A stretch of 64,000 nt of DNA from Acidobacteriota bacterium (GTDB lineage: Bacteria > Acidobacteriota > Thermoanaerobaculia > Multivoradales > Multivoraceae): NCBI GenBank assembly GCA_026708285.1, contig JAPOVF010000399.1:46669-110668 (forward strand). Direction: 5' to 3'. A program made the translations under genes and the position numbers. Under the pieces are notes generated by a model. That model was not told where the DNA came from. It ran no database searches and worked only from the letters and a program-made list of their open reading frames with translations. Below, one piece after another: positions 13,997 to 49,599 of this stretch. How positions within the stretch are numbered: the first letter of the stretch is position 1; each line of letters starts with the position of its first letter.

Positions 13997-14121
13997 TGCA
14001 CGGCCTCAGTCCGCGAACCGCCCAACTCTTCCATCTCCCAGTCGAGGGTATCTCTCCACAATCGGACGTTCTGGAGCTTTCGTCCGAAGCACGCAGCCCT
14101 TTCGCCCCTTGCATGAAAAAA

Positions 14122-14186
14122 GCTCGTGCTCGCTGCTTCGCAGCATCGCGCTCGATGCGGACCAGAAGGTCCGCGCATGTATGGTC
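14122..14186 (-). repeat. partial copy of the 3' hairpin module of the ~340-bp repeat family
   Basis: gctgcttcgcagcatcgcgctcg...gcggaccagaaggtccgcg is the reverse complement of the tail of copy A (23440-23500). Confidence 0.6.
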
Positions 14187-14299
14187 CGCCCCGCTGATGC
14201 AAGGGCTTTTCTGGAGTTGGCGGCGAGAGGTGCAGTTTGCTCGCATGTATTCGGCCTGTTGACGGGAGTCTCGTAGACAGCTCCCTGGCCCCGATGGAT

Positions 14300-15700
14300 T
14301 CCGCGCGCGTCGGCCTCTAAACACCCAGACGGCCTCTTGATGGGCCCTTGCGCGGGCTCAGGCTTCTCGACGCGCCGGGACTGTCCTGTTTCGCCATCAC
14401 TCGTTCAAGTCCTCGCAACCGCTTGGTTGGTCATCCTCCTTCGTTGATCGTCCTTCGTCTGACTGAGGCGGTTCATGCCGCTCGGCTGGGCCCTGCCTGG
14501 TCAGCCCGGTAGTAGTCGTCACGTCGCAGCAGCGCCCAGGCGGTCCGCGCCATCTTGTTGGCGATCGCCACGGTGGCGATGTTCGAGCCGCGGTTCTTCT
14601 TCAGGGCCAAGGCCCGCTCCTTGAGTCGAGTCCGTTGACCCAGGTGAGCCGTGCGCAGCACCGACCGGGCGCCATGGACCAGAAGAGCCCGCAGATACCG
14701 GTCACCACGCTTGCTGATGCCCAGGAGCACCGTGCGACCGCCCGTCGATGCCTGTCGAGGCACCAGGCCGATCCACGCCGCCATCTCGCGGCCACTGGCA
14801 AACACCCGGGCGTCGCCGACAGCCGCCACCAGAGCCGTCGAGGTGATCGGCCCAAACCCCGGCACCGCCAGCAGACGACGGCACAACGGATTGTGCTTCG
14901 ACTCGTGCTCCAGCAGTGACGTCAGACCCGCTACCTCCTCACGGGCCCTGACCAGCGACTCGTACTGCTTCCACAGCAGCCAGCGAGTCATCGACGGCAG
15001 GCCGTTCGACGTGTCCGACGCGATGTCGGGTACCTCACGCCTCACCACGTGGAGACCCAAGGGCAGCACGATCCCGTACTCGCGCAGAAACCCGCGCATC
15101 TGGTTGCCCAGCTGCGTGCACAGGCGCACCTGCAGCTGACGCGTACGGTGCACCTGCTGCAACGCTCGACGCTCCTTCGTCTTGTGCGGCACGAAACGCA
15201 TCGTCGGCCGCCCCACCGCCTCGCAGATCGCTGCCGCGTCGTGGAAGTCGCTCTTGTTCGACTTCACGTACGGACGCACAAACTGCGGACTCATCATCCG
15301 CGCGTCGTGGCCCAGACTCTCCAGCTTGTCCACCCAGTGGTGAGCACCGCCGCAGGCCTCCAGACCCACCAGACACGGCTTGAGTCTCGACATCAGCTCC
15401 ATCAACCCGGGCGCCTTCATCTGCTGCTGCAGTACCGGCTCACCGGCCCCGTTGACACCACACACCTGGTACACGTGCTTGCCCAGATCAATGCCGATTC
15501 GACTAATCTCTTCCACGGTCCGTCCCCCCTTGTCGCTTGGGTAAAAGCACCCATTCTGGCCCTCGAGAGGCCGTAAAGGTGCGGGGCGGACCATCCCATT
15601 ACCCAGAGCACGGCCGTCAGGCGGCGACACTCCCTACAGCAACCTGACTGTTTCCGTGCCCGCCAGCGACGCGGTTCAAACGCCGCCCCAAGTCAGCCGT
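14300..15700 (-). mobile_element. IS110-family insertion sequence (approximate ends)
   Basis: Recombinase CDS with ~170-200 bp non-coding flanks on each side. It is inserted between rsmG and jag next to a REP-like hairpin. This family has no terminal inverted repeats, so the ends are not resolved. Confidence 0.6.
14473..15516 (-). CDS. IS110-family transposase/recombinase (DEDD RuvC-like N-domain + Transposase_20 C-domain)
   Basis: N-terminal IGIDLGK (the DEDD first Asp). C-terminal region LLAVPGFGPITSTALVAAVGDARVFASGREMAAWIGLVPRQASTGG matches the IS110-family C-domain. The start is set at GTG (VEEISRIGIDLGK), preceded by GGGGGGA. Confidence 0.85.
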   Translation of the reverse strand: MEEISRIGIDLGKHVYQVCGVNGAGEPVLQQQMKAPGLMELMSRLKPCLVGLEACGGAHHWVDKLESLGHDARMMSPQFVRPYVKSNKSDFHDAAAICEAVGRPTMRFVPHKTKERRALQQVHRTRQLQVRLCTQLGNQMRGFLREYGIVLPLGLHVVRREVPDIASDTSNGLPSMTRWLLWKQYESLVRAREEVAGLTSLLEHESKHNPLCRRLLAVPGFGPITSTALVAAVGDARVFASGREMAAWIGLVPRQASTGGRTVLLGISKRGDRYLRALLVHGARSVLRTAHLGQRTRLKERALALKKNRGSNIATVAIANKMARTAWALLRRDDYYRADQAGPSRAA

Positions 15701-15794
15701 GAAACCCAGAACCCCCCTACCTGACAAACAGCGCGGGGCGCGCCCAAACGCCGACGACCTCCAGCCTGCCCGGGGCCGGAGGAGGGGCTCCCAG

Positions 15795-16085
15795 GGGGCT
15801 GTCGGCAAGCGACGCCCGACGCGACTTCATGAACCACCGCGGAACCGGAGCGCAGCCGACCGCAGCGAGCGTCCAACCTCCATTCATCCGGTAAACGCGA
15901 GCGGCCCCTGGGAGCCCCTCCTCCGGCTCCGGGCAGGCGCGTGCGCCCGACGCCCCCGCATGCACCACCGCCGAACCGGAGCGCAGCCGACCGCAGCGAG
16001 CGTCCAACCTCCATCCATCCGGTAAACGCGAGCGGCCCCTGGGACCCCCCTCCTTCGGCCCTGCCCAGGCGGGTGGGGCCCGACG
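15795..16085. repeat. tandem direct repeat, ~141-bp unit x ~2.1 with an inverted partial arm at 15763-15790
   Basis: The unit gaaccaccgcggaaccggagcgcagccgaccgcagcgagcgtccaacctccattcatccggtaaacgcgagcggcccctgggagcccctcctccggc starts at 15821 and again at 15962 with few mismatches. cctgcccggggccggaggaggggctccc at 15763 is the reverse complement of the unit end. Confidence 0.8.
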
Positions 16086-16103
16086 ACCACCAACCGAGGC
16101 GCG

Positions 16104-16904
16104 CTACACGCTGCGGATGTTGACGCGTTTGAAGTAGCCGTTGCCCTGGCTCTCGGTTTCGACGTCAGGGTCGTCGGCCAGGGTCAGGTGGACGATGCGG
16201 CGGTCGGCGGGGTTCATTGGACGCAGGGTGCGGATGCCGCCGCGGGAGACCACCTCGTCGGCGACACGGCGTGCGAGGCCTCGGAGACGTTCTTCCTTCC
16301 TGCGCTGATAGCCGCCGCTGTCGAGGCGGCACGGCACGATTCGTCCCAGCTCCCTGAACATGACCCGCGGCAGGAGGTGCTGGAGCGCCAGCAGGACCTG
16401 GCCTTCGTCCTCCACGAGGAGCTCCTGGTCCACTCCCTCGATCTCGACCTCCAGCCGGCCGTCGGCCAGCACCATCTCCGCCGACACCTCGAGGTCGGCC
16501 AGCTCCAGCAGTTGCCGAAGCGCCTGCTGGGCAATCTCCAGGATCTCCTCGGAATCCACGGCCGGAGAGTCCACGTCCTCCGGCGCCACCATGTCCGGCG
16601 CCGGCGCCTCCTCCGCTGCCTCCGCCAGCGCATCATCCGAGTGAACCGATGCGGACTCAGCGGCCGTCTCGCCGTCGCGTTCGTCGGTTAGTTCGTCGGT
16701 TGCTTGATGCGCCTCCGAGCGCGGGCCGACCTCTTGCGGGTCGACACGGATCACCACCCGACGGCGCTTGACGAATCCGTGTCGCTTCTCGACCCGGTCA
16801 AACACCACTTGGTCGGGCGATACGCCGAAATGGTTCGCGGCCGCCAGCACCGCTCTGGCCTCCGTTTCGCCTGAAAAGAACACGTTCTTGGTTGGTGTGT
16901 TCAT
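16104..16904 (-). CDS. jag: Jag/KhpB RNA-binding protein (KH + R3H domains)
   Basis: C-terminal R3H-like LRPMNPADRRIVHLTL and an acidic linker. It follows yidC as in the conserved rpmH-rnpA-yidD-yidC-jag cluster. Confidence 0.75.
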   Translation of the reverse strand: MNTPTKNVFFSGETEARAVLAAANHFGVSPDQVVFDRVEKRHGFVKRRRVVIRVDPQEVGPRSEAHQATDELTDERDGETAAESASVHSDDALAEAAEEAPAPDMVAPEDVDSPAVDSEEILEIAQQALRQLLELADLEVSAEMVLADGRLEVEIEGVDQELLVEDEGQVLLALQHLLPRVMFRELGRIVPCRLDSGGYQRRKEERLRGLARRVADEVVSRGGIRTLRPMNPADRRIVHLTLADDPDVETESQGNGYFKRVNIRSV

Positions 16905-19522: not shown

Positions 19523-19612
19523 TGGCGGAGAGGGTGGGATTCGAACCCACGGATCGCGCAAACGATCAACGGTTTTCGAGACCGCCCCATTCGACCACTC
19601 TGGCACCTCTCC
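19523..19612 (-). tRNA. tRNA-Ser (anticodon CGA)
   Basis: The reverse complement folds as a type II tRNA: acceptor GGAGAGG, anticodon stem GCGGT/ACCGT around loop CTCGAAA (anticodon CGA), long variable arm GATCG/CGATC, T-arm GTGGGTTCGAATCCCAC, and an encoded 3' CCA. Confidence 0.85.
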
Positions 19613-19659
19613 TCGTTCCCAGGCCTCTTGGTGCGCCTTCACCCTCTCCAGCCCCAGAA

Positions 19660-19749
<90 letters not shown>

Positions 19750-20257: not shown

Positions 20258-20492
20258 CCGTCCCCGCGCCGCATCGAAACCGTCCGCCAGGCGACCCGGG
20301 CTGCTACCATTTCACCCGATCCCCGTCTCTACGCACGGACGCGGGATCGAGAGGTGAACGAAGGGTTCGGGCCCTGTGTTTCGACCGGCCCCGAACCTCG
20401 TCAGGCCCGGAAGGGAGCAGCGATAGGGTGTTCGTTTCGAGGGCGCAGTACAGCCGGAACCCTTCATTGACTTCTCCCTCCACCAGCCGGTT

Positions 20493-23107: not shown

Positions 23108-23150
23108 CTGGGGACCCGCCCGTCCGGAGCCTGCGGGAAGGGCGTCGGGC

Positions 23151-23515
23151 TGCACCCGCCCGTCTTGGGTCCGGAGGGGTCAGCTCCCAGGGTGACGTGA
23201 GCGCTTCATTGGAGATGGGAGGGGATGGCGCTCACTCCGCTTCACTCGCTCCGGTTGGGCGTCGGTTGCGTGCAACGTCGTCGGCCGTCGCTCGTTCAGA
23301 GGCACCTGGGAGCTGACCCCTCCGGCCCCGACTGGGCTGGCGGTCGTTGCCCTGAGGCGAGGCACCGACCTACAACGCCCGCAGCGATCTCATGTGATCC
23401 GCATGTAGAGAAGCTCGCCGCACCGGTGCCGCTCTCTGGGTGCGCGGACCTTCTGGTCCGCAGCGAGCGCGATGCTGCGAAGCAGCGAGCGCGAACTCTA
23501 GACACGCAGACGAGA
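23151..23515 (+). repeat. ~340-bp structured intergenic repeat, copy A
   Basis: Begins cacccgcccgtcttgggtccggaggggtcagctcccag. The internal 20-bp inverted repeat ccggaggggtcagctcccag / ctgggagctgacccctccgg is ~130 nt apart. The 3' hairpin is GCGGACCTTCTGGTCCGC. It exactly fills the gap between the convergent recR and aminotransferase genes. Confidence 0.85.
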
Positions 23516-23516
23516 G

Positions 23517-24827
23517 TCAGACCTTCGACACCAACACAGACGCAGCCTGGATCAGCACGTCGGCCGCGTAGTCCAACTGGACTTCGGTGATAGCCAGCGG
23601 TGGCGCGATCTGCAGCACCGTGCCGGTTGCGCCGCCGCTCAGGGCGATCACGCCCCGTTCCAGGAGGTGCCGGCACAGGCCGGCCGCGCGCTCCCGGCTC
23701 TCGAGTTCCACGCCCCACAGCATCGCGGTGCCCCGGACGCCCACGACGCCGGGGCACTGCTTCAACGACTCGACGCGACGGCCGAAGCGGCTCCCGAACT
23801 CCCGGGCCCTCTGAATCAGGCGCTCACTCTCGATCACTTCAAGCGTCGCCAAAGCCGCGGCACAGGCAAGCGGATGCGCGACGAATGTGGCCGTGTGCCG
23901 GGCCTCGCCCTCCGTCTCCCAAGCGGCCATGACCTCCTTCTCACCCAGCACGGCTGCGATGGGAAGACCGCCGCCCAGGGCCTTGCCGCAGCAGATCAGA
24001 TCGGGCTCGATGCCCGCCTCCCCGCTCACGAACCACTCGCCGCAGCGGCCGAACGCGGTGAAGATCTCGTCAACCGCCAGGACCACGTCGTGTTCGCGAC
24101 ATGCCGAGGCCAGTCCGGCCAACCAGCCGCGAGGCGGCCATCGGGTTGCCTCGCGGCCGATCACCGGTTCGACCAGGCAGGTTCCGATGTCCGGCTGCCG
24201 GTCCAGCAATTGCCGCACCTCCTCAGGCTCGGCGCCATGGGGCAGACGGTGAACCAGGCTGTCCAGCGGCTCCGTGAAGGGCGTCCGAAAGGTCGGCCTC
24301 GAAGTGCCCTGGAGGGCGCCCAACGTCGTGCCGTGGTAGGCCGGCGTGAACGCGAGGACTCCAGGACGGCCGCTGTACAGGCGCCCTGTCTTGAGCGCGA
24401 TCTCGACCGCGTCGGCTCCCGAGGCGGCAAAGTAGACCCGCGGCTCGCGGAGCGGCGCCAGACGACCCAGACGCTCGCTCAGTTCAACGCGAGCAGGATG
24501 AGCGAATACGTCACCCAGTCCATGAAGAAGGCGATCGGCCTGCCGCTTGACCGCCGAAACCACGGCAGGATGCCGGTGGCCCACCGCGGCCACTCCGAAT
24601 CCAGCCGTCAGGTCGAGGAAGCGATTGCCGTCGATGTCCAGCACATTGCTGCCAAGAGCCTCCTCCCACAGCATCGCCGTGCTTCCGGCGACCAAGGTGT
24701 TGATCCCCGGCGCCTCCGCCCCTTCGAGCCGCCTAGCAGCCCGTCGTGCGCGCGGCCCCGGAAGCGAAGTTCGGATCTCCGGCAGCTGATCTCCGCGGAC
24801 GAGTCGGTGCGAACAAGGAGCAGCCAT
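23517..24827 (-). CDS. class III (omega-type) PLP-dependent aminotransferase
   Basis: 436 aa with a class III aminotransferase pattern (DEIFTAFGRCGEWF..., LICCGKALGGGLP). Substrate cannot be assigned. Confidence 0.7.
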   Translation of the reverse strand: MAAPCSHRLVRGDQLPEIRTSLPGPRARRAARRLEGAEAPGINTLVAGSTAMLWEEALGSNVLDIDGNRFLDLTAGFGVAAVGHRHPAVVSAVKRQADRLLHGLGDVFAHPARVELSERLGRLAPLREPRVYFAASGADAVEIALKTGRLYSGRPGVLAFTPAYHGTTLGALQGTSRPTFRTPFTEPLDSLVHRLPHGAEPEEVRQLLDRQPDIGTCLVEPVIGREATRWPPRGWLAGLASACREHDVVLAVDEIFTAFGRCGEWFVSGEAGIEPDLICCGKALGGGLPIAAVLGEKEVMAAWETEGEARHTATFVAHPLACAAALATLEVIESERLIQRAREFGSRFGRRVESLKQCPGVVGVRGTAMLWGVELESRERAAGLCRHLLERGVIALSGGATGTVLQIAPPLAITEVQLDYAADVLIQAASVLVSKV

Positions 24828-24880
24828 GCCGAAGGTCAGAGGCTAGCGCCCCTTGGCCTGGGCTTGCTACGCTGGAACCT

Positions 24881-24973
24881 GGCCCGCTACGGCCCGCGGC
24901 TGACCCCCGACGTAGGGCTGGAAGTAAGACACCCCCTCATCCGAGGCGGCTGTTGCGTCACCCGTAGCGGGCC
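24881..24973. repeat. 19-bp inverted repeat pair (CCGCGGGCCGTAGCGGGCC family) in the aminotransferase leader; third copy at 25586-25604
   Basis: ggcccgctacggcccgcgg at 24881 and ccgtagcgggcc at 24962 are mutual reverse complements. The full 19-mer recurs at 25586-25604 in inverse orientation. Confidence 0.7.
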
Positions 24974-25363
24974 ATCTGGGCAGTGCCGTCAGCAGTCCGC
25001 GGGAGTCAGCCGCGCACGGACCATAGTTGCGGCCGAGGCCACCGCCTATACCCATTTGCGGCCCTGCATTTGCACGTATGCGCTTGCAGGTGATCCCCTG
25101 GCTTAACGCCCGAGCTCGGGACATGACCCCCGCGCGGCCTTTCCTGGCGTCGACCGGGGCCAAAGGCGGAGCCGGGTGGCGCTCTCGTGGGGTAAGCCTC
25201 CTGCCCTAGCCCGCGCCTGGGAGGGACCGAACGCGCCTAGCAGCTAGCCGAAGGGCCCAGCCGTTCGCCGTCAACCGCAACGGACGAGCGGCGCGGAAGA
25301 CGTGCTCGACAACTGCGCCAAGGCGAAGGACAACCGCCGCCGCCTACGCCGAAGCGGGGCCAG

Positions 25364-25525
25364 TCAACGGAAGATCAACCAAAGTCCGAACAGCAACACG
25401 CTGTAGAACGCGATGTCGAACAGCGTTCCAGCAACCTTCCGTGCAACAGGTCCGGTCAGCCACGCCGGGAGCGTGACGCCTTCCGGATCACGGTAGCGAC
25501 GGCGAATGATGTCTCCTGTCGTCAT
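25364..25525 (-). CDS. hypothetical small membrane protein
   Basis: A ~53-aa ORF from an internal Met (MTTGDIIRRRYRDPEGVTLPAWLTGPVARKVAGTLFDIAFYSVLLFGLWLIFR) with a C-terminal TM helix. No family was recognised. Confidence 0.25.
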   Translation of the reverse strand: MTTGDIIRRRYRDPEGVTLPAWLTGPVARKVAGTLFDIAFYSVLLFGLWLIFR

Positions 25526-25735
25526 CAACATTGGTGCTCCAACGGCTCGGTGAAGGGAGCGCGAAAGGCCGACCTCGGGCGAGGTCGCGGGCCGTAGCGG
25601 GCCAAGTTCCACATTAGCAACCCCGCGCCATCTGTGTGCTAGAATCCTTACCGTCTTACTTCCAGTCTACGGTCGGGTCGTCGCGGATGAGCCGTCGACG
25701 GCGGGCTGTAGCACCCACTAAGGGGAGGCTACGAA

Positions 25736-26511
25736 TGAGGGAAGCTCTACGGGGCACGCTGCTGAGCGCGCTGTTCTTCGCCCTGCTGATCGGCGGCGCG
25801 CCGGGGATGGCGGCGGGAAAGCAGCTGCACTCGAAAGACGACGAGTTGATCCAGCCGATAGGGCCGTTCAACCCGATGCTGCTCGATGACGAACAGGGCG
25901 CAGCGTGGTTCGCGGATCTCATCCGACAGTCGGGCGGCCAGCTCAAAGACAAGGACTTCTACATCGACATTCCGGTCAAGACGACCCGGGAGCACCACGA
26001 CATGGTCGTCTACGGCATCCCCCCAACGGAGAGGGGCGAGGAAGAAGAAGACGGGCCCGCATCCGTGCGACAGGAAGCCGTAGGCGGCGAAACAGGGGTC
26101 ACCGTTGGCTACTACCGGTGCAACATCACGGCCCACAACCCGCACATGAGCCAGAACTTCTTCACCAGGGCCAAGACCGTGAAGGCGAAGGCCGAAGGCA
26201 ACTGCAACTACATCCCGGTCCGGATATCCCTGTCTCCGCCGCGGAGCCAGATGCGGTGGGAAATGTGGATGGCCCTCTACCACCGGACTCCTCCCTACGG
26301 CACAGTCGGCTACACGAAGCACCGCAGGATGGGCTGGTGGGCTCGGTGGTCGCCGCGGTCGGCTTTCGTCGACACCGGTGGCCTCTGCCGAAACGGGCTG
26401 TACATCAACAACGTGATTGTGATGTTCTTCGTGCCTTGGCCGTACTACACGTCGGCGAGCACTCCGCTCGTGGCGTACCGTGGCAAGTCCGCATGGGTCG
26501 AGAGCTGCTGA
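25736..26511 (+). CDS. secreted Cys-containing protein of unknown function (low-GC islet gene)
   Basis: From MREALRGTLLSALFFALLIGGAPGMAAGK, which is a signal peptide, ~258 aa with several Cys and Trp/Tyr-rich segments. It is visibly less GC-rich (e.g. third codon positions) than the flanking genes. No family was recognised. Confidence 0.5.
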
Positions 26512-26522
26512 ATGCTTTGAGG

Positions 26523-26580
26523 GCGCCTGAGCGTTGGGATAGTCCTACGGGGCTCCGGGTTCGATTCCCGGCAGGCGCCC
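26523..26580 (+). ncRNA. tRNA-like minihelix (acceptor stem + T-arm, no complete D/anticodon arms), 10 nt after the stop of the secreted-protein gene
   Basis: 5' GCGCCTG pairs with 3' CAGGCGC. It has a canonical T-arm CCGGGTTCGATTCCCGG, a short hairpin CGTTGGGATAGTCCTACG, a discriminator C, and CAC rather than an encoded CCA. Confidence 0.4.
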
Positions 26581-26891
26581 ACTCACCCCCACAGGAGAGA
26601 ACCAACGAGGAAGATGAGCCGGAAGATCAGCGGTGAGCCGCTGAGGCGGTTGTACAGGTCTAACGGCGGGGGTGCGGGGCGGCACTCTCGTAACGAGGTC
26701 GCTTGCTGCAAAGCGGACCAGCTACGGCTCTCCCTCTCAGAGAGCCCCGCCGCTCCGCCCAGAGATAGGGAGTCACTCCGGCACGCTCCCGCGATTTCGC
26801 CGGCGAGGTGGGCCCCTTTTGCCCCGCGGTCAGCGGCGATTCGGCGGCTGCCGGTCCGCTCAGCGCCTCTGTCTGGATCGTTGACCGGGAG

Positions 26892-27119
26892 CTAGCTCGA
26901 GGGAACTGGCCACGCGCCGATCACGGCACCGCCGGCGGCGATCGTGAACAGCAGGCAGCCGGCGTTGTTGAGGGCCGTGCGCATGTGCTTGGCGGTTTGC
27001 TGCAGGGCGACGATCTCGTCTCGTGCGGCGGGAGTGACCTCGCAGATGGTCCGGGCGGTCTCGGTGATCTCGGCGAGCACGCGGCGGTTCTCCCGGATCC
27101 GGTCGTCGGTGCTGGTCAT
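26892..27119 (-). CDS. hypothetical small protein
   Basis: ~75 aa from an internal Met (MTSTDDRIRENRRVLAEITETARTICEVTPAARDEIVALQQTAKHMRTALNNAGCLLFTIAAGGAVIGAWPVPSS), helical with a C-terminal hydrophobic segment. Confidence 0.25.
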   Translation of the reverse strand: MTSTDDRIRENRRVLAEITETARTICEVTPAARDEIVALQQTAKHMRTALNNAGCLLFTIAAGGAVIGAWPVPSS

Positions 27120-27270
27120 CGGGAGCGATCGAAGGATCGGTCGTCGCGAAGGCGCTCTAGCGTCCGCTGTGGCTACTGGGAAATCGGGACTAGGTTGGGG
27201 GACAGTCCTCCACGGTCTTTCCCCGCAAGTACCTACCTTCTCTACTACTTCGCGAGATTCCGGCCGGGAA

Positions 27271-27372
27271 GGAGTGAGCGCCACCCCCTTACATCTCCTC
27301 TCAAGCGCGAACGTCACCCTGGGAGCTGACCCCTCCGGCCCCGACTGGGCGGGTGCAGCCCGACGTTAAGCG
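27271..27372 (-). repeat. ~340-bp repeat family, truncated copy B (5' ~100 bp only)
   Basis: ggagtgagcgccaccccc...ctcaagcgcgaacgtcaccctgggagctgacccctccggccccgactgggcgggtgcagcc is the reverse complement of the 5' module of copies A and C. Confidence 0.75.
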
Positions 27373-47834: not shown

Positions 47835-48165
47835 GCACCCGCCCTTGGGTCCGGAGGGGTCAGCTCCCAGGGTGACGTGAGCGCTTGAGAGGAGATGTGA
47901 GGAGATGGCGCTCACTCCGCTTCACTCGCTCCGGTTGGTCGTCCGTTGCGTGGGGGGCGTCGGCCGTCGCTCGTTCAGAGGCACCTGGGAGCTGACCCCT
48001 CCGACCCCGACCGGGCTGGAGGTCGTTGCCGTGAGGCGAGGCACCGACCTGCAACCTCCGCAGCGGTCCCATGTCATCCGCATGTAGAGAAGTCCGCCAC
48101 ACCGGGGCCGATCTGTGGGTGCGCGGACCGTGGCGCGGACCTTCTGGTCCGCGTTTGCCGCATCC
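47835..48165 (+). repeat. ~340-bp structured intergenic repeat, copy C
   Basis: Near-identical to copy A over the 5' ~230 bp, including both 20-bp inverted-repeat arms. The 3' hairpin GCGGACCTTCTGGTCCGC is present. Confidence 0.85.
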
Positions 48166-48194
48166 GCCGTAGGCGGAATCCGCGGCGGCCTGTT

Positions 48195-49226
48195 TCAGAA
48201 CAGGGTGCCCCGGACTTGCAGGTCCAGGTGTTCGTACGCTCGCTTTGTCGCCACCCGGCCACGGCGGGTGCGCTGTAGGAATCCCTTCTGGACGAGGTAC
48301 GGCTCGTAGAAGTCCTCGATCGTTCCCTCGTCTTCCCCGACCGAGGCCGCGAGCGCCTTCAGGCCGGCCGGGCCGCCCCCGTACTGTTCGATCAGCAGTT
48401 TCATGATCCTGCGGTCGATCTTGTCCAGGCCCTGCTCGTCGACCTCCTGCTGAAGGAGAGCCTCGTTTGCGGTGTCGCGGTCGATCCGTCCGTCCGCTTC
48501 GATCTGCGCGTAGTCGCGCACCCGTCGCAGCAGCCGGTTCGCGATCCTGGGCGTACCGCGGCTGCGCCGCGCGATCTCGTCGGCGCCGCCCAGATCGACT
48601 GGCACCTCGAGCAGATCGGCGGAGCGCTGGATGATCACGCTGAGGACGTCGGGACCGTAGAAGTCGAGCCGGTGGACGATGCCGAAGCGCCCCTGCAGCG
48701 GCGGTGTGATCAGGCCGGCGCGGGTCGTGGCCCCGACCAGCGTGAAGCGTGGCAGGTCGATGCGCACCGTCCTGGCCATCGGTCCGGAGCCGATCACCAG
48801 GTCGAGCTGGAAGTCCTCCAGCGCAGGGTAGAGGATCTCCTCCACGGTCGGACCGAGACGGTGGATCTCGTCGATGAAGAGGACGTCCCCGGGCTCGAGG
48901 TTGGTCAGGATCGCTGCCAGGTCGCCCGCCCGCTCCAGGACCGGACCGGAAGTGGATCGCAGCGCCGAACCCATCTCCCTGGCGATGATGTGCGCGAGGG
49001 TCGTCTTGCCCAGCCCGGGGGGGCCGAACAGCAGCACGTGATCCAGAGCTTCGCCCCGCCGGCGCGCGGCCTGCATGTAGATGTCGAGCAGCTCGACGAT
49101 CTTCTCCTGGCCCAGATACTCGCTCAGCCGCTGCGGCCGAAGCGACGGTTCGAGACGGCGATCCTCCGCGTCCCCGACGGCTGAGAGAACGCTCTCTTCA
49201 CCGTCGGTGCCGCCGGTCCCGGCCAT
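48195..49226 (-). CDS. ruvB: Holliday junction branch migration helicase RuvB
   Basis: [15 protein letters not shown] and Walker [16 protein letters not shown]. Confidence 0.9.
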
Positions 49227-49261
49227 GGTCGGATGCTATCGCGGCCCCTGACACTGGCCGC

Positions 49262-49599
49262 CTGCCCGGATTCCGCCTGCGGCGGATGCGGACCAAAAGG
49301 TCCGCGCACCCAGAGAGCGACCCCGGTGTGGCGGACTTCTCTACATGCGGATCACACGAGACCGCTACGGGCGTTGCAGGTCGGTGCCTCGCCGCACGGC
49401 AACGACGTCCAGCCCGTCTCGGGGCCGGAGGGGTCAGCTCCCAGGTGCCTCTGAACGAGCGACGGCCGGCGCCCCTCCACGCAGCCGACGACCAACCGGA
49501 GCAAGTGAAGCGGAGTGAGCGCCATCCCCTCACATCTCCTCTCAAGCGCTCACGTCACCCTGGGAGCTGACCCCTCCGGACCCAGGACGGGCGGGTGCG
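49262..49599 (-). repeat. ~340-bp structured intergenic repeat, copy D (inverted orientation)
   Basis: Its reverse complement matches copies A and C. It contains GCGGACCAAAAGGTCCGC hairpin variant and fills the ruvA-ruvB gap. Confidence 0.85.

Follow-up and report, generated by a model that had tools for sequence, protein, structure and literature searches.

The window analyzed here, a 64,000-nt stretch of contig JAPOVF010000399.1 from an Acidobacteriota bacterium, carries in its intergenic gaps several copies of a repeat whose conserved core of 202 nt is predicted to fold on one strand as a long irregular rod. In the explanation that we favor, and hold with about as much confidence as doubt, this core is an old, vertically inherited, noncoding structured element of Thermoanaerobaculia-type Acidobacteria, which would be transcribed within the 3' untranslated region (UTR) of the upstream gene and would act in cis at the RNA level.

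Definition and distribution of the core

The first-pass annotation of the window had described a unit of ~340 bp. Comparison across genomes replaces it with a shorter one: only the 202-nt core is conserved, and the other ~110 to 130 nt consist of a lineage-specific linker and a separable hairpin module (the tail module). Since this module follows only 22 of 77 cores, the 340-bp "element" is a composite. A scan for the exact 19-mer arm GGAGGGGTCAGCTCCCAGG over one genome per prokaryotic species returned 57 loci, nearly all from metagenome-assembled genomes (MAGs) assigned to Thermoanaerobaculia, Candidatus Multivorans, Acidobacteria, Holophagales, or Vicinamibacteraceae; the three hits from unrelated taxa, none of which the covariance model matches, were discarded as chance. 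The core bounds common to these loci, GCACCCGCCCGTCTTGGG ... CTGGGCTGGACGTCGGTGCC (~202 nt), were determined with blastn and nhmmer, and the surroundings examined throughout this work are 8-kb loci around the matches. A covariance model, R1, built from 52 cores finds ~55 full cores in the 57 loci and ~25 more in metagenome contigs. Scanning of metagenome contigs with the junction pattern GCTCCGGT-N20-34-GGGCGTCGCTYGC, with the type A represented by three copies of the window excluded, gave 66 stretches, ~25 of which hold full members of other subfamilies. The core is present in at least 20 Acidobacteria MAG species in addition to metagenomes, with four to six copies per complete chromosome when counted by the exact 19-mer only.

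Covariation and strand asymmetry of the fold

RNAalifold predicts for the 52 cores a structure closed by a long helix (P1); it further comprises one hairpin (hairpin A), another at the apex (hairpin B), and short helices, and 12 of its pairs show compensatory changes. Over the 80-member model alignment, 97% of the cells of this first structure are paired and 21 of its 40 pairs change on both sides; none of 500 shuffles reached the observed values, and sliding the partner by one to three columns reduced pairing to 36 to 53%. Refolding of 44 thinned sequences suggested a rod in which two conserved strands, J1 and J2, pair with each other via G-C pairs split by tandem U·C/C·U mismatches. In this 59-pair structure 94% of the cells are paired, and both partners change at 29 pairs, for a total of 269 compensatory cells, again matched by none of 500 shuffles (37 to 47% paired in the slid-partner controls). 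The J1:J2 pairs themselves covary (AU 54/GC 21 without exception, CG 59/GC 8, and CG 72/GC 3), as does hairpin A, and at least seven different P1 arm sequences occur, all still complementary. Compensatory change between copies, which the first-pass annotation had named as the sign of a functional RNA, is thus observed.

Conservation along the core is concentrated in four near-invariant blocks: the 5' terminus GCACCCGCC, CTCGCTCCGGT, GGGCGTCGCTCG..GAG, and the 3' terminus GGCTGGA. The near-invariant positions correspond to the base of the stem and to strands that are internal or unpaired, and the variable ones to the middle of P1 and the loops, a pattern opposite to that expected for transposon terminal inverted repeats. 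The pairing is also strongly asymmetric between the strands. G·U cells outnumber A·C cells by 186 to 29 in the first structure and by 307 to 60 in the rod; G·U reaches at least 10% at eight pairs and A·C at none, and three G·U pairs of the apical helix are near fixed. This excess of G·U over A·C indicates that the fold is confined to one strand, as RNA or single-stranded DNA. Consistent with this strandedness, the R1 model scores the type-A copies of the window at 204 to 219 bits on the forward strand and 34 to 44 bits on the reverse strand. Both compensatory changes and strand-specific pairing, the features sought in a structured RNA, are therefore seen in the core.

The translations of open reading frames (ORFs) across the copies had been called spurious, and we concur: a small protein-coding ORF is rejected because most copies carry stop codons in every frame and indels of 1 to 2 nt dominate. 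A search of the whole window against the 4,227 Rfam families at the gathering threshold retrieved only two tRNA-Ser genes and a small signal recognition particle (SRP) RNA. All three, located at 19523-19749 and 20365-20463, are ordinary features; the tRNA-Ser genes (CGA and GGA anticodons) share an identical 31-nt 3' segment, and the SRP RNA lies upstream of dnaX-ybaB-recR. For copy 1 at E<=10 the best Rfam match is Pxr, at 20 bits against a threshold of 80 bits, and at E<=1 nothing was found over 14050-16110. No earlier description turned up in a literature search on the sequence motifs and on repeats of Acidobacteria.

Position and orientation relative to neighboring genes

The core typically starts 10 to 90 nt past the stop codon of a gene on its own strand. 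For 56 of 73 copies, the gene upstream shares the strand of the element, a number that becomes 60 once the 4 of the 17 exceptions that reflect a miscalled ruvA are corrected. In tandem-gene contexts, 28 copies are sense and 9 antisense before this correction, and when each upstream gene family is counted once the ratio is ~24 to 9. Four of the five members in the window are sense, behind recR, ruvA, the DegT-type aminotransferase gene, and jag. This position behind a same-strand stop makes transcription in the 3' UTR most likely.

The first-pass annotation had offered a family of structured noncoding RNA genes as one identity for the repeat. The structured noncoding family stands; genes with promoters of their own are not supported, as no conserved upstream sequence was found. 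Independent trans-acting small-RNA genes, for instance a multicopy sponge for a protein, would account for the conserved structure, for the invariant single-stranded motifs (including the GGA in the loop of hairpin A), and for copies that stay intact while antisense to both neighbors. The sequence upstream of the core is, however, unconserved and often just the 10 to 40 nt after a stop codon, and we found neither a sigma-70-like promoter consensus nor an intrinsic terminator consensus. Because of this, cotranscription with the upstream gene fits better than independent genes, to which we attach very little probability.

The genes upstream of the element include those of three recombination loci, recA (in six species: L001, L028, and four other loci), recR, and ruvA/ruvB. 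We entertain tentatively, as a possible but doubtful extension of the 3'-UTR reading, that the cores constitute an undescribed class of structured RNA, a rod of ~190 nt with an invariant, pyrimidine-rich internal loop for a specific protein, placed throughout a bacterial class in 3' UTRs that include those of recA, recR, and ruvA/ruvB, which would provide shared posttranscriptional control and whose facing pairs would bound invertible single-gene cassettes. A common regulon was considered and rejected, since beyond recA, recR, and ruvA the upstream genes are diverse (glutathione S-transferase, epimerase, coenzyme A-transferase, symporter, and secreted proteins). The occurrence of the recombination genes is notable but may be due to chance, given that the sampling was centered on this window.

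The 5'-end motif of the core, CACCCGC, appears again on the upstream side in 18 of 73 copies and on the downstream side in 3 of 73, sometimes in tandem arrays with a period of 20 to 21 nt. These arrays start with GCACCCGC and reach up to eight units, and the unit number differs between species at one locus (Table 1). The 20-nt unit GCACCCGCCTGGCGTCGGAC was considered as a general insertion target and rejected; it is absent from the window, occurs in 2 of the 57 loci, and represents a local tandem expansion of the 5' end.

Several observations weigh against a cotranscribed RNA element. The alignments were fitted to the structure of the model, which inflates the paired percentages given above. 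The sequences are related, so that changes at the level of subfamilies amount to few independent events, and the covariation of P1 would be expected equally from inverted-repeat arms bound by a transposase. Transcription of the element is deduced from its position only; some intact copies, such as that at 47835-48034, are antisense to both neighbors; and the lack of intrinsic terminator and promoter consensuses is a further point of this kind. Genes in the loci were called by a crude heuristic based on GC content at third codon positions, which miscalled ruvA, as shown by tblastn. Finally, the identity of orthologous cores (0.76) is about equal to that of the third codon positions of ruvA (0.75) between the window and L009, from which we conclude that any constraint is position specific rather than global.

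Orthologous placement of the copies and the question of a transposon origin

Most copies are nearest to the copy at the same locus of another species and not to a paralogue in the same genome. The arrangements ruvA-E-ruvB-E-thrA, DegT-E-aminotransferase-E-recR, recA-E, and jag-E (where E is the element) each recur in three to six species. At such loci the core can be aligned but its flanking spacers cannot, and the changes within the core fall mostly in the loops and in the central part of P1, which indicates that the core is under site-specific constraint.

The main alternative is an ancient or decaying transposable element of the miniature inverted-repeat kind (MITE), a type of element also suggested by the first-pass annotation, with the P1 arms as terminal inverted repeats; it would have spread early and would now be mostly immobile, tolerated only at sites and in an orientation that cause little harm. 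The inverted arms of ~37 bp, the size of 200 nt, the dispersed intergenic copies, and the subfamilies with matched arms all fit such an origin. So do the truncated and internally deleted derivatives and the local partial duplications: some copies are reduced to their arms with the interior deleted (L083:5469-5540 and L112:7502-7573), others form tandem partial copies (L016:6413-6760), and two carry an internal insertion of ~66 nt (L006:4228-4496 and L056:2461-2729). The repeat also serves as a target for an insertion sequence (see below), as repetitive extragenic palindromic (REP) and MITE elements often do (PMC11208160).

Against this, although the ~37-bp arms are complementary, the right arm has an 8-nt bulge and the outermost termini, GCACCCGCC and GGCTGGA, do not form an inverted repeat. 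No target-site duplication was found among 73 copies when 3- to 8-mers were compared at all boundary offsets; the best agreement of 5-mers at the boundaries, 15%, is due to an internal motif that is conserved. Conservation is higher in the interior than in the arms, the G·U versus A·C asymmetry points to pairing within a single strand, and the copies are orthologous across species rather than polymorphic. No sign of mobility, whether polymorphism or an autonomous partner, was found in the loci examined, where the sole nearby transposase is of the IS110 family and has unrelated ends, and no transposase with matching ends occurs in ~1 Mb of flanking sequence. Moreover, few copies are detected in each genome (as given above for the exact 19-mer). 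No family member was found among the pattern hits to viral contigs of IMG/VR, the INPHARED phages, or the PLSDB plasmids, which rules out a phage or plasmid origin as far as these collections reach. We consider the MITE explanation unlikely, and a MITE in the strict sense is not supported, given the absence of duplications and of signs of mobility, the orthologous clustering, the conserved interior, and the absence from these collections. The element may nonetheless have had an ancient MITE-like origin, which would be compatible with its being an RNA element now.

Facing pairs of cores and single-gene inversions

Inverted cores facing each other enclose ruvB (window 47835-49598) and the aminotransferase gene next to recR (23152-27356). 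Relative to ruvA and thrA, ruvB is codirectional in the window, L009, L016, and L041 and inverted in L051 and L036; L051 is a close relative of the genome of the window, and its ruvB aligns over only 289 of 343 residues. Likewise, the aminotransferase gene has one orientation with respect to DegT and recR in the window, L021, L008, and L034 and the opposite one in L045 and L030; it is missing from L025, which has DegT-E-recR. A third locus with a facing pair shows no inversion. As judged from tblastn coordinates relative to the outer genes, on which this claim solely rests, facing pairs of cores have mediated inversions of single genes between closely related species. Misassembly is an unlikely cause, as several of the records are chromosome-level MAG assemblies, which we take to be long-read based. 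The mixed orientation of downstream genes was discarded as evidence for inversion, being partly an artifact in which the gene enclosed by a pair is counted twice.

Four contigs assembled from short reads in Logan that carry the recR of the window (L140 to L143) all end 85 to 86 nt past the recR stop codon, within the P1 arm. That all of them stop in this arm indicates that the repeat breaks short-read assemblies. The recR of the window was detected in ENA ERZ27276915 and in the runs SRR23238833, ERR5002189, ERR5005005, and ERR5004218.

These facing pairs bring in a second alternative, that the element works as a DNA or single-stranded DNA site, either a hairpin like those of REPs and REPINs (REP doublets) for a REP-associated tyrosine transposase (RAYT) or a nucleoid protein or a site of recombination by which the enclosed genes become invertible. 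Facing pairs enclose single genes at no fewer than three loci, with ruvB and the aminotransferase gene present in both orientations among close long-read genomes; there are three direct repeats of CGCTC; folded single-stranded DNA likewise tolerates G·T pairs; and the element stands behind recA, recR, and ruvA. However, homologous recombination between 200-bp repeats of ~90% identity would be enough for the inversions, and one of the pair loci lacks one. Moreover, the orientation of the element tracks the neighboring gene and not the replication strand, with both orientations found within 2 kb; its spacer of 110 nt disfavors cruciform extrusion; and no recombinase or RAYT gene is linked to it in the loci examined. 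On balance, we regard a function as a DNA site as quite improbable.

Copies of the element in the window

The copies listed in the first-pass annotation are at the places where it put them, with repeat identities of 88 to 93%, far above chance in a repeat search of the window. The matches from this search are 23152-23331 versus 49419-49598 (180 nt, 93%), 23279-23450 versus 47958-48129 (172 nt, 91%), 27271-27342 versus 49512-49583 of copy 3 (72 nt, 93%), and 14110-14177 versus the 3' tail of copy 1 (68 nt, 88%). In all, the window has three full members, a truncated one, and a diverged one that had been missed (copy 4). The 20-bp inverted repeat ascribed to every copy is perfect in copies 1 and 3 but matches at only 19 of 20 positions in copy 2 (CTGGGAGCTGACCCCTCCGA). 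The flanking genes had been named correctly as recR, a class-III aminotransferase gene, a thrA-like gene for aspartokinase-homoserine dehydrogenase, ruvB, and ruvA, to which we add those for a DegT-type aminotransferase, an IS110-family transposase, and jag/R3H. The nearest relative of copy 2 is its orthologue at L051:2079-2280 (96% identity). Copy 4, of type B, has P1 arms of another sequence that are still complementary and retains the motifs GCTCCGGTT and GGGCGTCGCT.

The stretch 24854-27270, which separates the aminotransferase gene from the truncated copy 5, has a 45-nt inverted repeat pair (24854-24898/25586-25630), and its orphan ORFs 25636-26511 and 26808-27329 have no Pfam or NCBIfam match. 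This stretch may be an insertion that truncated copy 5.

The tail module and its insertion sequence

The tail module consists of the short motif CTGGGTGCGC and a GC-rich hairpin and lies 9 to 240 nt from the cores that it follows. The hairpin reported in each copy, GCGGACC-TTCT-GGTCCGC, does occur at four places in the window where 0.31 would be expected, each adjoining an element, but in copy 3 the loop is TTTT. A BIME- or REP-like identity (BIME, bacterial interspersed mosaic element), also raised by the first-pass annotation, does not apply to the core, which at 202 nt with a branched interior is 5 to 10 times too long for a unit of 20 to 40 nt. The tail module, in contrast, is of REP size and behaves like a REP in being hit site specifically by an IS110-family element, much as IS621 and ISPpu9 target REPs (PMC11208160; PMC12288879).

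The supposed "tail fragment" near 14 kb is real, although it lies on the minus strand and is the severed 3' end of copy 4, because an insertion sequence (IS) at 14177-15600 splits the tail of that copy. The recombinase of the IS has the PF01548 (DEDD) and PF02371 (Tnp_20) domains (NCBIfam NF033542, 313 bits). Its left end spans ~85 nt and its right end ~300 nt, with a 14-bp subterminal inverted repeat, ATGGTCCGCCCCGC. The IS1111 group of the IS110 family is characterized by a DEDD/RuvC-like plus Tnp_20 recombinase, a short left and a long right end, subterminal inverted repeats of 7 to 17 bp, site-specific insertion that creates no duplication, and a guide RNA in the right end (PMC11208160, Durrant et al.). 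By its end layout, its recombinase, and its insertion without duplication, the IS of the window belongs to this group. Since the GTG annotated as the start of the transposase ORF (15630) falls outside the IS, this ORF must truly begin farther downstream.

The insertion point is CTGGGT^GCGCGGACC, directly 5' of the tail hairpin, as obtained from three comparisons: the IS of L028, the junctions of the IS in the window, and the uninterrupted tails of other copies. In L028 a related IS (68% amino acid identity) occupies the same position (CTGGGT^GCGC) behind a type-A core, and a close relative has an orthologue of copy 4 without the IS (L034:7699-7900). The tail module is thus the target of an IS110-family insertion sequence: the link between repeat and IS that the first-pass annotation had drawn is confirmed, by the insertion point and by the second IS at the same site, as a target relationship. 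Within the right end of the IS lies GTCTGGGTG...GACGCGCGCGG, a candidate guide-RNA loop that is similar to the two halves of the target CTGGGT^GCGCGG. A core derived from or mobilized by the neighboring IS110 element is ruled out, as there is no similarity between the element and the ends of the IS. Mobilization of a module by an IS of this kind has a precedent in ssr9 and ISPpu9 (PMC12288879).

Table 1. Coordinates of the element copies, their parts, and associated features (positions in the window unless a locus is named)
Feature	Position	Strand	Remarks
Core copy 1, type A	23152-23355	+	45 nt past recR stop; covariance model 219 bits, reverse strand 34 bits
Copy 1 P1 arms	23155-23194 / 23305-23341	+	
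Copy 1 hairpin A	23197-23235	+	
Copy 1 conserved strand J1	23236-23256	+	TCCGCTTCACTCGCTCCGGTT
Copy 1 hairpin B	23257-23286	+	
Copy 1 conserved strand J2	23287-23305	+	GTCGCTCGTTCAGAGGCAC
Copy 1 tail	23356-23508	+	GGCA..TGCC-type hairpin, linker, motif CTGGGTGCGC (23436-23445), GC hairpin, 3' extension
Copy 1 GC hairpin GCGGACC-TTCT-GGTCCGC	23444-23461	+	
Copy 1 tail 3' extension	23463-23508	+	Recurs at 14110-14176
Core copy 2, type A	47835-48034	+	Between thrA and ruvB, antisense to both; 204 bits
Copy 2 tail	48035-48189	+	CTGGGTGCGC partly duplicated; hairpin 48135-48152, second hairpin 48158-48189
Core copy 3, type A	49394-49598	-	12 nt past ruvA stop, sense, upstream of ruvB; 208 bits
Copy 3 tail	49260-49393	-	CTGGGTGCGC 49304-49313; hairpin GCGGACC-TTTT-GGTCCGC 49288-49305
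Core copy 4, diverged type B	15746-15944	-	Sense, downstream of jag/R3H; 104 bits, E 3e-25, full length
Partial tandem duplicate of type-B core	15945-16075	-	131 nt, 5' two-thirds; repeat 106 nt, 92%; model positions 42-150
Copy 4 tail, 5' part	15601-15745	-	Ends in CTCTGGGT at IS junction
Copy 4 tail, 3' part	14110-14176	-	GCGCGGACC-TTCT-GGTCCGC, second hairpin, T run
Truncated copy 5	27271-27356	-	5' arm and hairpin A only; sense, 10 nt past DegT stop; breaks after GGCGCTCACTCC
IS1111-group IS110-family IS	14177-15600	-	1,424 bp; ends AATGGG-ATGGTCCGCCCCGC ... GCGGGGCGGACCAT-ACAT; transposase ORF end 14473
Tandem 5' repeats	L008:6871-6930, L021:5042-5130, L045:3150-3213, L025:6560-6599; window 23115-23151		

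Predicted mode of action and comparison with known repeat families

We infer that the core folds as RNA and, likewise, that it has a specific molecular role. The sense strand would fold as a long irregular rod with the P1 helix of ~37 bp, hairpin A at its side, an interrupted helix made of two near-invariant pyrimidine-rich strands (CUCGCUCCGG / CGUCGCUCG), and hairpin B at its apex. Such an element, presumably transcribed within the 3' UTR of the upstream gene, could plausibly serve in 3'-end processing or stability, or in termination or insulation, that is, control of read-through. The long duplex would be a natural substrate for an RNase III-type enzyme, and the invariant internal loop is a likely binding site for a protein. 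Correia and ERIC (enterobacterial repetitive intergenic consensus) elements offer an analogy that makes cis-acting 3'-end processing, stability, or read-through control the most economical proposal: the paired arms of Correia elements form, when cotranscribed, a hairpin that is cut by RNase III, and ERIC elements at the 3' ends of genes can alter mRNA decay (PMC10969869).

ERIC (127 bp) is comparable in being an imperfect palindrome of transcribed intergenic regions with a low to moderate copy number, a clade-wide distribution, often orthologous sites, and an unknown mode of spread. The element differs from it in having no sequence similarity, in its greater length (202 nt), branched interior, and invariant unpaired strands, in its clear sense bias, and in belonging to Acidobacteria rather than Gammaproteobacteria. 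The Correia repeat enclosed elements (CREE), MITEs of Neisseria, similarly have long paired arms that form an RNA hairpin if cotranscribed; unlike them, the element has yielded no TA duplications, hundreds of copies, presence/absence polymorphism, or functions as promoter or binding site for integration host factor. With REPs, BIMEs, and REPINs it shares the occurrence of extragenic palindromes behind genes, but REPs are 20 to 40 nt long and usually number in the hundreds, and REPINs are simple doublets maintained by RAYTs, so the core is far larger. Parallels in pattern of change are also offered by orphan structured RNA motifs of the Rfam type, known from comparative genomics, which have the same compensatory changes, invariant junction nucleotides, and variable loops; the element stands apart from these in being multicopy and 3' of genes, in its unusually long closing helix of 37 bp, and in having no Rfam match.

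The core thus defines a noncoding family in a poorly studied and mostly uncultured class, with members in Acidobacteria from wastewater, sponges, and soil. Should it be an RNA element, it would represent a rare case of a conserved multicopy structure of bacterial 3' UTRs, with an internal loop that is specific and invariant. Should it be selfish DNA, it would show that a repeat can persist at orthologous sites through speciation with its fold kept. Either way, it seeds inversions of ruvB and the aminotransferase gene, it breaks short-read assemblies, and it provides a natural target of an RNA-guided IS1111-type recombinase, which would be useful for the programming of bridge- or seek-RNA targets.

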